NCBI GenBank assembly: GCA_963827235.1
Contig: CAWHAE010000019.1
Span: forward strand, 176,234-240,233
Source: an uncultured bacterium
Lineage (GTDB): Bacteria; Chloroflexota; UBA5177; JANWHV01
Length of the DNA: 64,000 nt
Direction of reading: 5' to 3'
The notes below the pieces were generated by a model. That model was not told the origin of the DNA. It searched no databases and saw nothing but the letters and a program-made list of their open reading frames with translations. Both the position numbers and the translations under genes were made by a program. Of the stretch, positions 4,334-43,606 are shown piece after piece. How positions within the stretch are numbered: position 1 is the stretch's first letter; each line of letters opens with the position of its first letter.

Positions 4334-4416
4334 GCCGAAGTGGCGGAACGGTAGACGCGGCGGTCTCAAAAACCGTTGAGGACAACCTCGTGTGGGTTCG
4401 AATCCCACCTTCGGCA
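4334..4416 (+). tRNA. tRNA-Leu (anticodon CAA); CCA not encoded
   Basis: Acceptor stem GCCGAAG/CTTCGGC, anticodon loop CTCAAAA (CAA 4367-4369), long variable arm, T-loop GGTTCGAATCC. Confidence 0.95.
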
Positions 4417-38250: not shown

Positions 38251-38510
38251 GGCCTCGGCATCAGCGCTGCCGGCTCTCTGAATCTGGTTAAGTACCGGCA
38301 CCGTAGGTGATAAGTGGGGGCGCTCCCCGGCCGGCTCGCCCAGCCGGCGCCGTCGTATGGAGAGAGGGGGTTGCTCAAACGACTGGTAGAACGCGGCGAC
38401 ATCACGGTCTGGGGCCGGCGTCGTCGCCGGTCTACGTTGCCTTGCCTGCTCTCGGCGCGCCTCTCGTTGCGCGCCGAGGCGATCGAACCACGAATCAACG
38501 GAGGTACAGA

Positions 38511-39014
38511 ATGACACTTGCGCCTCGCTGCGCGGCTACTGTCGGCGCGCTCGCCTTGGCCTTATCCGTCTATGGCGTTTCGGCGGCTGCGCCGGCCACT
38601 ACCACCTTTCCCCTGCGCGGCACGCGGATGGCGAGCATGGCGCATGGGTTGGCGCAGATCACGCAGACGGCGCCGGGCGACTACATGGTGACCGTCACGG
38701 TCGACAAGTTGCCCGCCCCGGCCACCTTGAAGACGACCCCCATCCGCCATGCCTACGTCGCCTGGGCGCTGGTCATGTCGAGCCAGCCGCGCTCAACCAG
38801 CAGCCAGAAGCGGCCGGCCGGCGCCCGACCACAGCTCGGCCCCCTGACGCCCATACGGCTTCATGCCACCACGGCAGGTACCTACACGGGCAGCGGCGTG
38901 GTTATGATGAAGAGCGAGCCGTCCATCTTGATCACTGCTGAGGTGAGCGAGACGGTCGACAAGCCTGCCACGCCGTTGTGGGGCGTCTTGATTGGACGTC
39001 CGGGCAGTATGTAA
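38511..39014 (+). CDS. Hypothetical secreted protein
   Basis: RBS GGAGG, ATG 38511, signal peptide-like N-terminus, beta-rich body. Confidence 0.65.
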   Translation: MTLAPRCAATVGALALALSVYGVSAAAPATTTFPLRGTRMASMAHGLAQITQTAPGDYMVTVTVDKLPAPATLKTTPIRHAYVAWALVMSSQPRSTSSQKRPAGARPQLGPLTPIRLHATTAGTYTGSGVVMMKSEPSILITAEVSETVDKPATPLWGVLIGRPGSM

Positions 39015-39071
39015 GAAGCGCTCTCCTCCCGGAGTTCGTGTTCGCAGCGCCCTGGGGATCGCGGCGACCAC

Positions 39072-39110
39072 CCGTGCCTCGAGCTCAGGCTCGAGGCACG
39101 GCTGTTTCTT
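39072..39110 (+). terminator. Intrinsic terminator-like hairpin
   Basis: Perfect 13-bp stem CCGTGCCTCGAGC/GCTCGAGGCACGG, 4-nt loop, followed by CTGTTTCTT. Confidence 0.65.
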
Positions 39111-39208
39111 CCACGCCAGGTGCGTGCTGGTCATAGCTGCTCACGAAAGTCTCCCTCGACACTGACGAAATCCCCTTCGATCAGTAATCAGACTTGGCCA
39201 TTCCCATG

Positions 39209-39217
39209 TGGTATGAT
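39209..39217 (+). promoter_or_regulatory. Extended -10 promoter of the metG leader
   Basis: TGgTATGAT ending 7 nt before ATG 39225. Confidence 0.65.
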
Positions 39218-39224
39218 CGTAGCC

Positions 39225-39320
39225 ATGCAGACGAGCCTGATCTCCACGACCGCCGCCGGAGCGCTGAGCATGCCTATGTCCATGCGCCGGCCTCGTCTGT
39301 GCGCGCGAGGCGGGCCGTAG
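39225..39320 (+). CDS. Putative Met-rich leader peptide of metG (31 aa, leaderless)
   Basis: MQTSLISTTAAGALSMPMSMRRPRLCARGGP; Met codons at 39270, 39276, 39282; tandem TAG TAG stop. Confidence 0.65.
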   Translation: MQTSLISTTAAGALSMPMSMRRPRLCARGGP

Positions 39321-39348
39321 TAGCCCGCCCGGCCGGTACCCAGAGCAG

Positions 39349-39387
39349 ACGAGGCGCCTTGAGTGATCGAGGCGCCTCGTGTTTTTT
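39349..39387 (+). terminator. Attenuator terminator upstream of metG
   Basis: 14-bp stem ACGAGGCGCCTTGA/TCGAGGCGCCTCGT (one G-U), GUGA tetraloop, T6 at 39382-39387. Confidence 0.88.
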
Positions 39388-39398
39388 GTGGAGGACCA

Positions 39399-41159
39399 GT
39401 GAGCGAGCATGTCGGCGTCTTCGTAGCCTGGCCGTACGCGAACGGTGACATCCATCTCGGGCACGTAGCCGGCGCCTATCTGCCGGCTGACATCTTCGCT
39501 CGCTATCATCGGCTGCGCGGAGACCACGTGCTGATGGTCAGCGGAAGTGACGCTCATGGAACGCCGGTCAGTCTACAGGCCGAGGCCGAAGGTGTCTCGC
39601 CGCGCGTCTACTTTGAGCGCTTCCACCACCGGTTCCTGGACGACTTGCTTCACCTGGGTGCCGGCTTCGACCTCTTCACACACACGAACACCGATCTGCA
39701 TGCCGCCGTGGCGCAGGACATTTTCCGCGCGTTGCATGAACGGGGCCTGATCCGGCCGGGCACGACGACCCAGCTCTATTGCGAGAAACACCGTCGGTTC
39801 CTCCCCGATCGATACGTGGAAGGGAGCTGCCCGCTCTGCGGTGAATCTGGGGCACGGGGCGATCAATGCGATGCCTGCGGGCACACACTCGACGCAGCGA
39901 ATCTCGTCGAGCCCCGCTGCAGGCTGTGTGGATGTTCCCCGATATCGCGTGAGAGCACGCACCTGTTCCTCGACCTCCCGGTCTTCCAGGACGGCATCGC
40001 CGCCTACATCGAACGGCAGGCGCATTGGCGCCCTAACGTGCTCAACTTCGCGCGCAACTACGTCGGCGGCGGGCTGCGGCCGCGCGCCGTCTCACGCGAT
40101 CTCGACTGGGGCATTCCGATCCCGGTGCCCGGCTATGAGGGAAAGGTGATGTACGTCTGGTTCGAGGCAGTTATTGGCTATCTCTCAGCCAGCATGGAGT
40201 GGGCGCGGACTCGGGGCGAGGCGGCCGAGTGGCAGGCGTGGTGGCGTAGCCCGGATGCGCGCGGTTACTACTTCATCGGCAAGGACAACATCCCCTTCCA
40301 TGCCGTAATCTGGCCTGCCGAGCTCATGGGCTGGGACTCGAGCCTGGCGCTGCCCTACGACATCCCGGCCAACGAGTTCCTCACCCTGGAGGGCAGACGG
40401 CTCAGCACCAGCCGCCGGTGGGCCGTCTGGCTGTCCGACTATTTGCAGCGCTATGGGCCGGACCCTCTTCGCTACTATCTGACCGGCATTGCGCCGGAGA
40501 GCGGAGACAGCGAGTTCACCTGGCAGGGCTTTCTCGATCACAACAACAACGAGCTGCTGGCTACGTGGGGCAACCTGGTCCAGCGCGTGATTAGCTTCGC
40601 GCACAGCCGCTGGGAAGGGCGAGTGCCGGTTCCAGGCGCGCTGGACCGGCGAGACGACGCGATGCTCGCTGAGATCGAGCAGGGATTTGCCACGGTCGGC
40701 GACCTCTATGCTCGCGTCAGGCCGGCCGCCGCGCTTCGAGAGGCCATGGCCCTGGCGCGCGCCGTGAATCGGTACTTGGACGACAAGGCACCGTGGTTCC
40801 AGATTAGGCAGGATCGGGCGGCGGCTGCCACCACGGTCTTCGTGGCACTGATGGCCATCGACTCTCTGAGCATTCTTCTGGCGCCCGTGCTGCCGTTCAC
40901 GAGCGAGCAGACACGCCGGTACCTGGGCTACGATCGGCCGTTGTTCGGCAGCCTGCGGGTCGAACAGAGCGAGGAAACAACGCAGCCCCACGCGGTGCTT
41001 CGTTACCTGCCTCACCCGGAAGAGGGGGTAATAGACCGCTGGCAGCCGAGCGCGTTGCCTGCCGGCCGTCCGCTCGAGCGGCCGATGGTGCTTTTCGAGA
41101 GGCTCGACCAGTGCATCGTTACCGAGGAGCGCGCTCGGCTCCGCGCGTGGTCTGGATGA
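39399..41159 (+). CDS. metG: Methionine--tRNA ligase (two Zn knuckles, no C-terminal tRNA-binding appendix)
   Basis: AWPYANGDIHLGH, GSDAHG, YVWFEA, IGKDNIPFH, RLSTS; GGAGG before GTG 39399. Confidence 0.96.
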   Translation: MSEHVGVFVAWPYANGDIHLGHVAGAYLPADIFARYHRLRGDHVLMVSGSDAHGTPVSLQAEAEGVSPRVYFERFHHRFLDDLLHLGAGFDLFTHTNTDLHAAVAQDIFRALHERGLIRPGTTTQLYCEKHRRFLPDRYVEGSCPLCGESGARGDQCDACGHTLDAANLVEPRCRLCGCSPISRESTHLFLDLPVFQDGIAAYIERQAHWRPNVLNFARNYVGGGLRPRAVSRDLDWGIPIPVPGYEGKVMYVWFEAVIGYLSASMEWARTRGEAAEWQAWWRSPDARGYYFIGKDNIPFHAVIWPAELMGWDSSLALPYDIPANEFLTLEGRRLSTSRRWAVWLSDYLQRYGPDPLRYYLTGIAPESGDSEFTWQGFLDHNNNELLATWGNLVQRVISFAHSRWEGRVPVPGALDRRDDAMLAEIEQGFATVGDLYARVRPAAALREAMALARAVNRYLDDKAPWFQIRQDRAAAATTVFVALMAIDSLSILLAPVLPFTSEQTRRYLGYDRPLFGSLRVEQSEETTQPHAVLRYLPHPEEGVIDRWQPSALPAGRPLERPMVLFERLDQCIVTEERARLRAWSG

Positions 41160-41219
41160 TGATCGGACCCCGCCCCTGCCCACGCCGCCGGTGACGCCGA
41201 TGCCACGCTGCACGACAAG

Positions 41220-41486
41220 GTGCTGGCCCGAAACGGTTACTCTTGGCGCTCGACCGATAGGGACAGCGACGGAGGAGCTCACTGGACGCTGGCGGCGGGC
41301 GGTATTGCGGTCCCTCCCGCTCCGGGCGCCTTTCCCAGCGACGTGAGCGGCAGTTACTTCTACTCTCCCGCCTCCGGCTGGACCAGCGTCGTGATCGGTC
41401 CCGGACCGCAATTGAGCGGTCTCTACCACTCGATTGATGGCGGCCATGCCTGGAAAGCCCGGCATCCGTTGTTTGCCGCAGCCTGA
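41220..41486 (+). pseudogene. Fragment of a BNR/Asp-box repeat protein
   Basis: SDGGAHW and YHSIDGGHAW repeats; no signal peptide or full-length ORF. Confidence 0.45.
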
Positions 41487-41884
41487 TCCACGGTGCGGTG
41501 ACGGCAGTGCCTGTGCATGGTGAACGCCCCGTGCTGTACCCTGTGGAGAAGGCGGCGATTCGCGGCTCGCCGGTCATTCGGTCGTTGGCAGCGCTCGAGT
41601 GCGGGCCGCGGCCGCGCGAGCAGACGAGGGACCCCGCGAGCGGGTACACGGCGGCGAACCGCGGGTCATCAATGGCTACGACCATGACAGTAGTTGCTCA
41701 CCGGCACGATGCCGGCGATCGCGCGTTGCGGAGGGATGCATGCGCCTGCTCGCTCCCAGCCGCGACGACGTAGTGCGCATTCGGATCGCACCACGGCGCG
41801 CCGCGCGCCGGTAAACCGGGCCCGGCTTGGCGAGCGCACATAGATTGGGCACCGGGACGTTCCTGGCGTCCCGTGTGAGGGGAG

Positions 41885-43606
41885 ATGGACATGTCGACGG
41901 TTACCACGCGGCAAATGCGCTCAGACACGATCAAGAAGGGCTTCGAGCGTGCACCTCATCGGGCACTGCTCCGCGCTACCGGCGTGATCCGGGACGAGAA
42001 GGACTTTGAGAAGCCGTTCATCGCCGTGATCAATAGCTACGTGGACATTATTCCCGGTCACGCCCACCTGCAGGAGGTCGCCAGGACCGTGAAGGCTGCC
42101 ATTCGCGCGGCGGGTGGCGTGCCCTTCGAGTTCAACACCATCGGCGTGGACGACGGTATCGCCATGGGACATATCGGCATGAAGTACTCGCTGCCCAGCC
42201 GCGAGCTGATTGCCGATTGCGTGGAGACGGTGATCGCCGCCCACGCCTTTGACGGCATGATCTGTATCCCGAACTGCGACAAGATCGTGCCCGGGATGCT
42301 GATGGCTACCATGCGCTTGAACATCCCCACTATCTTCTGCTCCGGCGGGCCGATGCGAGCCGGGCGCCTGGCCAGCGGGGCCAAGGCAGATCTGATCACC
42401 GTGTTCGAGGCGGTCGGCGCATACGCGCAGGGCAAAGTCAGCGACGAAGCGCTGCTGGAGCTGGAGCAGAAGGCCTGTCCCTCCTGCGGCTCGTGCTCCG
42501 GCATGTTCACGGCCAATTCCATGAACTGCCTGTGCGAAGCGCTGGGCATTGCTCTTCCCGGCAACGGCACCATCCTGGCCAGAACGCCGGAGCGTGAGGA
42601 GCACTACCGCCGCTCGGCCGCGCGCTTGCTGCATCTGGTCGAAGAGAACGTCCGCCCGCTGGACATCATCACGCCGCCGCGATCGACAACGCCTTCGCCC
42701 TGGATATGGCGATGGGAGGCTCGACCAACACGGTGCTGCACACGCTGGCTCTCTGCCACGAGGGTGGGGTGGACTACCCGCTCGAGCGGCTGAACGAAGT
42801 CGCGGCGCGCGTGCCGTACATCTGCAAGGTGTCGCCGGCCTCCGCGAAGGTGCACATCGAGGACGTGCACCGCGCCGGCGGTATCAGCGCCATTCTGCAC
42901 GAGCTGAGCCGCCGGCCCGGGCATCCTGCACCTCGACGTGCCGACGGTGACCGGCAAGACGCTGGGCGAGAACATCGCGCGGCTCTGCCGTCGCCGATTC
43001 CGCGGTGATTCGGCCGCTGGATGAGCCGTTCCAGGACCGCGGCGGACTGACGGTGCTCTTCGGCAACCTGGCGCCTGATGGTGCCGTCGTCAAGTCCGGG
43101 CGCCATCGACGAGTCTGCCTGGAAGTTCCGCGGTGCGTGCCGCATCTATGAGAGCGGGGAAGCAGGCCCAGGCCGCTATTCTGCGCGGCGAGGTAGTGGC
43201 CGGCGATGCCGTGGTCATCCGCTACGAGGGACCCAAGGGCGGTCCCGGCATGCAGGAGATGCTCGGGCCGACCGGCGCCCTGGCGGGCATGGGCTCGGCG
43301 ACGTCGGTCGCGTTGCTGACCGACGGACGCTTCAGCGGCGGCAGCCGCGGCATGGCCATCGGCCACATCTCGCCGGAAGCGGCAGCCGGTGGACCCATCG
43401 CCGCGCTGCGCGACGGGAGACATCATCGTCCATCGACATCCAGGCCTGCCGGCTGGACGTCGAGCTGAGCGAAGACGAGCTGAGCCGTCGCCTCAAAGAG
43501 GCGCGACCGCCCGAGCAGCGTGCTGCCTGGTCGCTGGCTAAGGCGCTATCGGAGCCTGGTGACCTCGGCAAATACGGGGGCGGTACTGCGCGACCCGGAC
43601 TACTAA
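41885..43606 (+). pseudogene. ilvD: Dihydroxy-acid dehydratase, interrupted by about 7-8 single-base frameshifts (possibly sequence errors)
   Basis: [62 protein letters not shown] spread over successive frames between 42677 and 43530. Confidence 0.92.

Follow-up and report, generated by a model that had tools for sequence, protein, structure and literature searches.

In the 64-kb stretch of DNA analyzed here (the window; its genome is denoted G000), the methionyl-tRNA synthetase (MetRS) gene metG is preceded by a real and conserved leader, which is probably a ribosome-mediated transcription attenuator responding to the charging of elongator tRNA-Met and controlling this accessory MetRS gene. 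The leader combines a short frame enriched in Met codons, an intrinsic terminator in front of the gene, and mutually exclusive antiterminator and anti-antiterminator pairings, as is found in attenuators. Each element of the anatomy set out in an earlier note on this DNA (the -10 element, ATG spacing, 31-codon frame, segments 1 to 3, small hairpin, 14-bp terminator, and ribosome-binding site [RBS]) can be read from the sequence exactly where that note had placed it (Table 1), and its interpretation as a Met-tRNA attenuator is supported by conservation of the Met codons, of segment 2 and of the pairings, as well as by recurrence of the design before other metG genes.

The control region is bounded on its left by the hairpin at 39072..39101. 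An extended -10 element is separated from the ATG at 39225 by the 7-nt spacer CGTAGCC, and this ATG is not preceded by a GGAGG-like Shine-Dalgarno (SD) motif. The frame that opens here ends with the sense codon CCG and tandem stop codons (TAG TAG, 39318-39323), and its three Met codons, starting at 39270, 39276, and 39282, fall within five codons (M-P-M-S-M). Segment 2 can pair exactly with either segment 1 or segment 3, the latter of which shares 7 nt with the 5′ arm of the terminator; the T-run of this terminator ends 12 nt upstream of the metG start.

In the mechanism that we propose, transcription would start at or next to the A of the ATG at 39225, giving a leaderless mRNA on which a 70S ribosome would translate the 31-codon frame. 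In untranslated RNA, segments 1 and 2 would pair once segment 2 is made, segment 3 would stay free, the terminator would form, and transcription would stop before metG. With ample Met-tRNA, the ribosome would reach the stop codons in the small hairpin, melt that hairpin, and sit between segments 2 and 3; with the ribosome past it, segment 2 would return to its pairing with segment 1, and the terminator would form again. With scarce Met-tRNA, a stall on either of the first two Met codons would place the ribosome between segments 1 and 2, where it would melt the inner 1:2 hairpin; segment 2, whose first base lies 20 nt past the first Met codon, would then be free to pair with the emerging segment 3. 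The 2:3 pairing would sequester the terminator 5′ arm and allow RNA polymerase to read into metG, the outcome being a feedback in which falling tRNA-Met charging leads to more MetRS.

Table 1. Elements of the metG leader, followed by neighboring features and the second MetRS gene of the same genome. Positions are those of the window unless a locus is named
Feature	Position	Strand	Description	Basis
Extended -10, TGGTATGAT	39209..39217	+	no good -35 partner	sequence
Leaderless-type leader-peptide frame, 31 codons, MQTSLISTTAAGALSMPMSMRRPRLCARGGP	39225..39323, stops included	+		sequence
Segment 1, CAGACGAG	39228..39235	+	would pair with segment 2 as anti-antiterminator	exact complement, 8 bp
Met cluster (putative sensor), ATG CCT ATG TCC ATG	39270..39284	+		sequence
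Segment 2, GCCTCGTCTG	39290..39299	+	putative switch strand; alternative partners segment 1 or segment 3	
Small hairpin, GGCGGGC/GCCCGCC, 7 bp	39309-39315 / 39323-39329	+	leader stops in or at loop	
Segment 3, CAGACGAGGC	39346..39355	+	putative antiterminator strand; exact 10-bp complement of segment 2	
Intrinsic terminator	39349..39387	+	14-bp stem 39349-39380, GTGA loop, then G, T6 39382-39387	terminator scan
metG SD, GGAGGA	39390..39395	+	outside terminator stem	
metG, methionine--tRNA ligase, 586 aa	39399..41159	+	start GTG 39399	
Terminator hairpin and T-rich tail	39072..39101	+	ends upstream 235-aa gene; 13 pairs	terminator scan
Upstream open reading frame (ORF), 235 aa	38307-39014	+		
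Resident MetRS gene	L323:132-1673 (contig C9)	-	orthologues in L327, L328, L329	NCBIfam NF008900

Conservation of the leader is evident among 60 metagenome loci with usable upstream sequence, seven of which carry a Met cluster; six of these seven (L255, L257, L256, L258, L273, and L306, where L-numbers denote compared loci or contigs) share a clearly homologous leader. L257 is identical to L255, and the alignment, denoted A1, is built from six distinct leaders, that of G000 and those of five contigs whose MetRSs are 60-73% identical to the window MetRS. The homologous frames (MKTGQRATIAISTLMLMPMAMRMPMCRPRLLARGGP, MQTGQHTTNTTIAIGAIMRHGMPMSMPMRKPRLLAQGGP, MQTGQRTTTGIVTRHGMPMSMCWPRLLARGGP, and MEADGLMTHVVHQCMPMVMPGPRLPSGGT) hold 3-6 Met codons; across the six leaders, frame length ranges from 29 to 39 codons, yet no stop interrupts any of the frames between the 5′ ATG and the loop of the small hairpin, where each of them ends. 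The motif TGnTAnnnT is kept in 6/6 leaders, as is a spacing of 6-7 nt from the -10 element to the ATG. Three ATG triplets form invariant columns of A1 and are the sole invariant codons of that region of the frame, the intervening codons being variable, and Met makes up 26 of the 200 non-start residues (13%) in the six leader peptides versus 8 of 586 (1.4%) in the MetRS. With its constant openness and its invariant ATG columns amid varying codons, the leader frame looks translated.

The RNA elements of the leader are conserved as well. The sequence CCTCGTCTG in segment 2 is invariant in all six leaders, third codon positions included, and GACGAGGC and the terminator core show little or no variation; segment 3 and the terminator follow the small hairpin, the terminator stem and T-run are present in 6/6, and the homologues retain the GGAGG of metG. 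In L306, the segment-1 motif GCAGACGG is retained despite a 4-nt insertion that moves it to another reading frame, which argues that segment 1 is kept as RNA and not as peptide. Pairs can form in 93.8% of the alignment cells of the 1:2 helix, 98.3% of those of the 2:3 helix, 91.5% of those of the 3:4 terminator, and 80.5% of those of the small hairpin, versus 31-57% when helices are slid by 1-3 columns as a control. Two pairs of the small hairpin change on both sides and one terminator pair switches between AU and GC (4:2); the 1:2 and 2:3 helices are devoid of compensatory changes because segments 1-3 barely vary. The earlier note had looked to such an alignment of metG upstream regions for conserved Met codons and for compensatory changes in all three helices: the conserved codons and the capacity to form 1:2, 2:3, and 3:4 pairs are borne out, but the compensatory changes are confined to the single 3:4 pair. 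As judged from the aligned sequences, pairing capacity of the 1:2 and 2:3 helices is thus conserved, short of proof by covariation.

The consensus structure returned by RNAalifold for A1 comprises the 2:3 helix and the small hairpin, and of the terminator stem it retains the upper half. The same consensus pairs A1 columns 195-200 with columns 209-214 (window 39375-39380 and ~39389-39394), joining the tail of the terminator 3′ arm (CCUC..) to the metG SD; this helix amounts to only 4 pairs in G000 and, at ~6 pairs at most, is imperfect in the homologues as well. In the model, it could be an extra translational layer or incidental.

Folding of the G000 leader itself gives a minimum free energy (MFE) of -87 kcal/mol for 39225-39400 (176 nt), with z = -3.61 and none of 200 shuffled sequences as stable. 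The MFE structure consists of the 1:2 helix, the small hairpin, and the terminator, which folded alone reaches -28.5 kcal/mol; the Met codons sit in a small local hairpin of this structure. The 2:3 antiterminator duplex of G000 scores -22.7 versus a shuffle mean of -17.3 (p 0.037, 300 shuffles), and when the region after the Met codons was paired with the terminator 5′ arm in 29 leaders, the best duplex beat 300 shuffles at p<=0.05 in 14 of them. The window contains 8 copies of the segment-1 sequence CAGACGAG or its complement, where 3.9 are expected, and three of these copies fall inside 39228-39353 (126 nt).

We surveyed the 600 nt upstream of 140 listed metG orthologues together with 14 earlier loci, 154 regions in all. 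A short frame with at least three Met in eight residues is found in 28/154 regions in the sense orientation, as compared to 2/154 reverse complements and a mean of 0.6 (maximum 2) in 20 shuffles; requiring at least four Met leaves 15 sense, 0 reverse-complement, and 0 shuffled frames. These 28 positives are distributed over G000 (1) and families f8 (17), f52 (3), f32 (2), f79 (1), and f13 (4). The four f13 frames (L058, L063, L094, and L125) were discounted, as they lie 230-470 nt upstream and lack a promoter-like hexamer in the preceding 20 nt. In L058, L063, and L094, a conserved Met-rich frame, MSTTTSRMMMRPRTMRPIAKGGDI and variants, is located 346-468 nt upstream of metG and may lie inside, or antisense to, another gene.

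Family f8, a different family of the same phylum (probably Chloroflexota), provides a second example of the design. Its leader is found before the orthologous metG in 18/18 genomes examined (the 17 above and one more, out of 24 f8 genomes in the sample). In f8, a -10 hexamer lies close upstream of an ATG or GTG start, at 6-8 nt in most, with a TTGACA -35 element in most; the leader peptides are exemplified by MQNRPAYPMVTITMLMPMCMEQWMRVWMAR, and a conserved terminator (GGCTGTCC...GGACAGCC plus T-run) is present as stem and T-run in 18/18. The f8 frame closes with TGGATGGCACGTTAG or a variant of it, which can base-pair with the terminator 5′ arm; 87.3% of cells pair versus 27-59% when slid. From these features, the f8 leader appears to be of like design and of independent-looking origin, and the design recurs in three further families besides f8 (f52, f32, and f79). 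A separate arrangement is seen in L197, a contig named Ardenticatenaceae, where the region ~190-340 nt upstream of metG contains a frame very rich in Met (..MMIGHWVVLMMRMPSAPIMMMVRGSARVGAQRWSMPGPG) together with a hairpin and T-run, and a second promoter-like sequence, TGTTAGAAT, lies nearer to metG; this may be another Met-leader variant.

The G000-type leader is, by comparison, narrowly distributed. A covariance model (R1) spanning the Met cluster to the terminator matched only its own leader in G000 (131.9 bits), and over 150 further genomes of the phylum its matches reached at most 32.3 bits, with nothing convincing among them; five low matches that were inspected are gene-end terminators without Met frames. 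Since R1 finds only itself, the G000-type leader is a separate, rarer sequence family that follows the same logic. Among 76 genome-contig loci, any upstream Met cluster is found in four, and none is of the G000 type. Within G000, a scan of all 21 contigs for a short frame with a Met-codon cluster followed by a terminator returned six candidates. The metG leader has the longest stem of the six (14 bp) and is the sole one with a downstream frame recognized as met-related; one other candidate, viewed closely, lies antisense within a 981-aa frame, and none besides metG is convincing as part of a wider Met-leader regulon in this genome.

Known RNA families do not account for the leader. A permissive Rfam scan of 38800-39700 gave eight matches, all well under the gathering score, the best of which, sX12 (23.2 bits, gathering 106) and sX11 (22.2 bits, gathering 70), both fall on the terminator hairpin. 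The T-box model (RF00230) is without a match in 38800-39700 even at E<=10, and at gathering score the window and the related loci are likewise free of T-box matches; no Rfam match to the SAM/S-box or other Met-related riboswitches was obtained at the leader, in the related loci, or in the window, and the same holds for the amino-acid leader families Phe_leader, Trp_leader, His_leader, Leu_leader, and Thr_leader. The seven related loci gave no Rfam match, and the whole window at gathering score yields a single tRNA (4334-4416). The earlier note had seen no T-box and had named T-box and SAM riboswitches as structures to exclude with Rfam, and neither reaches threshold.

The gene behind this leader encodes a second MetRS. 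Its product matches NCBIfam TIGR00398 with 484.3 bits (cut-off 336.35) and harbors an HLGH motif, with RLSTS at the KMSKS position. Throughout the clade of window-type MetRSs, this position reads xFSTS, RLSTS, or KISGS, and the second lysine is missing. Another G000 contig, C9, encodes a 514-aa MetRS (NF008900, 617 bits versus a cut-off of 598), which we refer to as the resident enzyme. Window-type MetRS is found in 234/401 sampled genomes of the phylum and in 0/4, 0/4, and 0/12 genomes of three families in the class of G000 (0/20 other genomes); these tallies take in the unpublished genomes G343 and G271, and the tally of the second MetRS takes in G018. Relatives of the window MetRS with named records belong to Chloroflexota, namely Ardenticatenia (70%) and Thermomicrobium, Sphaerobacter, and Thermalbibacter (66-68%). 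In genome G001, the flanking genes occur in the same order, a 429-aa gene and ilvD with 73% and 82% DNA identity, respectively, and the contig is thus genuinely from this genus. Between those flanks, G001 carries a 267-aa gene and a 375-aa membrane-protein-like gene in place of the 235-aa gene, the leader, and metG. On the strength of gene content and order, that is, class-wide absence and broken synteny versus G001, the window metG is a strain-specific accessory second MetRS gene between conserved genes, a status of which the earlier note was unaware. As a second, horizontally acquired copy, it would serve as an inducible back-up enzyme.

The resident MetRS has an unusual active-site signature. 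In place of HIGH it reads P-S-A-G-S (P-S-T-G-S in G001), at a position that is P-H-[ILV]-G-[HF] in 16/16 class and phylum relatives, one of which (L026) is from the unpublished genome G018. This odd motif is kept in G001, G002, and G004, whose enzymes are 76-91% identical and where the same query found no other MetRS; a class I synthetase without either HIGH histidine is unusual. In L323, TGGTACACT lies 9 nt before the resident MetRS ATG with no obvious SD, and this gene may also be leaderless. The 300 nt upstream contain no leader frame and no Rfam match.

Downstream of metG, 41160-41884 (~720 nt, from the metG stop to ilvD) contains no convincing ORF and no Rfam match. The ilvD gene (41885-43600) looks frameshifted: the frame from 41885 is only 302 aa long and has a nonsense-looking tail, and the remaining similarity to G001 ilvD (query 41881-43600, 82% identity) falls in other frames. 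It is either a pseudogene or broken by assembly indel errors, and if the latter, homopolymer lengths, e.g., that of the leader T6, are uncertain.

Several results weigh against the attenuator. A two-hexamer sigma-70 consensus scan of 38500-41600 called no promoter, the extended -10 element being without a -35 match. Without a ribosome, the 2:3 domain (-41.5 kcal/mol) outranks the 1:2 domain (-29.1 kcal/mol), and a default-off state therefore depends on co-transcriptional kinetics. Equilibrium folding with a 27-nt ribosome mask gave no switch in G000, with a terminator probability of 0.98 in all states, and upstream pairing of the terminator 5′ arm, computed on transcripts ending before the terminator 3′ arm, is about the same in free RNA (0.71), with a stalled ribosome (0.63-0.75), and with a ribosome at the stop (0.68). 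Switch behavior appears in this masked model for just 6/29 leaders. Any switch must therefore be kinetic; classical attenuators also act kinetically. The lack of compensatory changes in 1:2 and 2:3 is to be read against an alignment of six sequences and shuffle controls that are weakly exceeded. The species with the closest MetRSs (66-70%; Thermomicrobium, Sphaerobacter, and Ardenticatenia) are without such a leader, and the homologous leader is likewise absent in Thermalbibacter; in the species genomes nearest by MetRS (67-70% identity), nothing but a short untranslated region (UTR) separates metG from a TGCTTTAAT- or TATAAT-type promoter. Given known ribosome footprint sizes, a ribosome with the third Met codon in its A site would be expected to cover the first bases of segment 2. 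Finally, methionine shortage would also cut charging of the initiator tRNA and so counteract translation of the frame.

Of the alternatives, the one that survives best, though still unlikely, is a translation-dependent attenuator that reports general ribosome availability or speed, like antibiotic-responsive leaders, in which the Met codons are not the sensor. G000 has just three Met codons, which are nonadjacent, and stalls at these codons do not stand out in the equilibrium models, both of which would fit such a device; it leaves unexplained, however, why the ATG triplets alone are invariant in that region of the frame, why Met-rich frames precede metG in several families (28/154 versus 2/154 on the opposite strand), and why Met makes up 13% of leader residues but 1.4% of the MetRS. 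We give little credence to a second alternative, in which the RNA is an operator for MetRS, another protein, or a ligand, the frame is incidental, and C-AUG presents CAU, the anticodon of tRNA-Met, as a mimic. Anticodon mimicry is used in ThrRS autoregulation in E. coli, C precedes 2/3 AUGs in G000, and the placement of the Met codons within a small local hairpin of the MFE structure would suit such an operator; an incidental frame would nevertheless not be expected to stay open from a 5′-terminal start to a conserved stop site in 6/6 leaders, over 29-39 codons and with a fixed promoter-to-ATG spacing, and the leader matches no known riboswitch or leader family.

Control might also be translational, with the folds gating access to the metG SD and the hairpin and T-run terminating poorly. 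The weak helix that RNAalifold predicts between the 3′-arm tail (CCUC..) and the SD (4 pairs in G000) is consistent with this idea, as is the mycobacterial poly-Cys precedent, which acts by RBS sequestration (10.1101/834739), but a 14-bp GC-rich stem directly before T6 is a canonical intrinsic terminator, the stem and T-run recur in 6/6 homologues and 18/18 f8 leaders, and the SD lies outside the stem, so that we regard this possibility as improbable. A chance GC-rich arrangement, in which the terminator is constitutive or the 5′ UTR simply structured and nothing is regulated, is very improbable: GC-rich RNA does pair promiscuously, and only 14/29 leaders beat shuffles for the antiterminator duplex at p<=0.05, but the entire layout is kept in homologues whose MetRSs are just 60-73% identical, recurs in other families with strong strand asymmetry, and has a fold z of -3.61.

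The Met-tRNA attenuator that we favor has clear counterparts among known systems. Leader-peptide attenuation is described for Trp, His, Phe, Leu, Thr, Ile/Val, and Cys. In trpL, a four-segment layout of 1:2, 2:3, and 3:4 pairings is read out by two regulatory codons, and untranslated RNA terminates by default; the G000 leader shares the four-segment layout, the few regulatory codons, and, as proposed, the default termination of untranslated RNA, but its target is a synthetase and not a biosynthetic operon, and its Met codons lie between segments 1 and 2, whereas the trpL codons are inside segment 1. From this placement, the ribosome would act by separating segments 1 and 2 and melting the inner hairpin, not by masking. 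Auxiliary synthetases that are turned on at low charging include thrZ and tyrZ of B. subtilis, both under T-boxes, and trpRS1 of Streptomyces coelicolor, under a Trp leader peptide. Like these, the G000 metG would be a second, normally silent synthetase copy switched on at low tRNA charging; it differs in having no T-box and in its specificity for Met.

A survey of Actinobacteria (PMC1262725) lists known or predicted attenuators in front of the synthetase genes pheST, trpS, and leuS and reports no conserved RNA structure before methionine operons. In pheM-pheST of E. coli and in the candidate trpS and leuS attenuators of Streptomyces (PMC1262725), a cognate-codon leader peptide, an antiterminator/terminator choice, and a synthetase target are combined as in G000. 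With such a leader before a synthetase gene, the enzyme level follows the charging of its own tRNA. G000 differs from these systems in sensing Met, in its apparently leaderless frame, and in having no match to Rfam Phe_leader or any other leader. Its stop codon follows segment 2 at a distance of 18 nt instead of immediately preceding it, so a terminating ribosome would leave segment 2 unmasked. Leaderless sensory short ORFs for cysteine that act on translation are described in mycobacteria (10.1101/834739); in these poly-Cys ORFs (the Cys "ribulon"), as is proposed for the G000 frame, a sensory ORF lies at the mRNA 5′ end and a stall turns on downstream genes. The stall there opens an RBS-hiding structure (10.1101/834739), whereas the output in G000 would be a canonical intrinsic terminator, and the amino acid and phylum differ. 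Leaderless genes are predicted in 4/12 Chloroflexi genomes, at ~4.7% of genes (PMC3160421). The earlier note knew of no characterized Met-codon attenuator, and no description of one was found in the literature searched, with subscription journals mostly beyond that search; one paper (PMC4833913) matched on words, but methionine and metG are not mentioned in it. Relative to known attenuators, what is most likely new in this leader, as far as can be read from its sequence, is the Met specificity, the apparently leaderless frame, and the unusual geometry.

A more ambitious proposal, which we offer tentatively, is that the leader represents an undescribed class of Met-tRNA attenuator in which the ribosome works as a wedge, by position and not by masking. 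At the Met codons, the ribosome would part segment 1 from segment 2, and at the stops it would part segment 2 from segment 3, in each case setting the partner of segment 2. Such a device might travel with the acquired MetRS as an inducible back-up cassette that is turned on when the P-S-A-G-S MetRS fails to keep tRNA-Met charged, e.g., in the presence of an inhibitor.

Methionine has seemed an awkward amino acid for attenuation, since initiation draws on the same amino acid and synthetase. If the interpretation presented here is correct, a conserved Met-codon attenuator before metG fills in the missing specificity, charging of elongator tRNA-Met can be read apart from initiation on a leaderless mRNA, and the leader provides a simple, portable sensor of MetRS activity. 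The association of the leader with a MetRS gene that is accessory and horizontally acquired suggests that synthetases and their attenuators move together as self-regulating cassettes.

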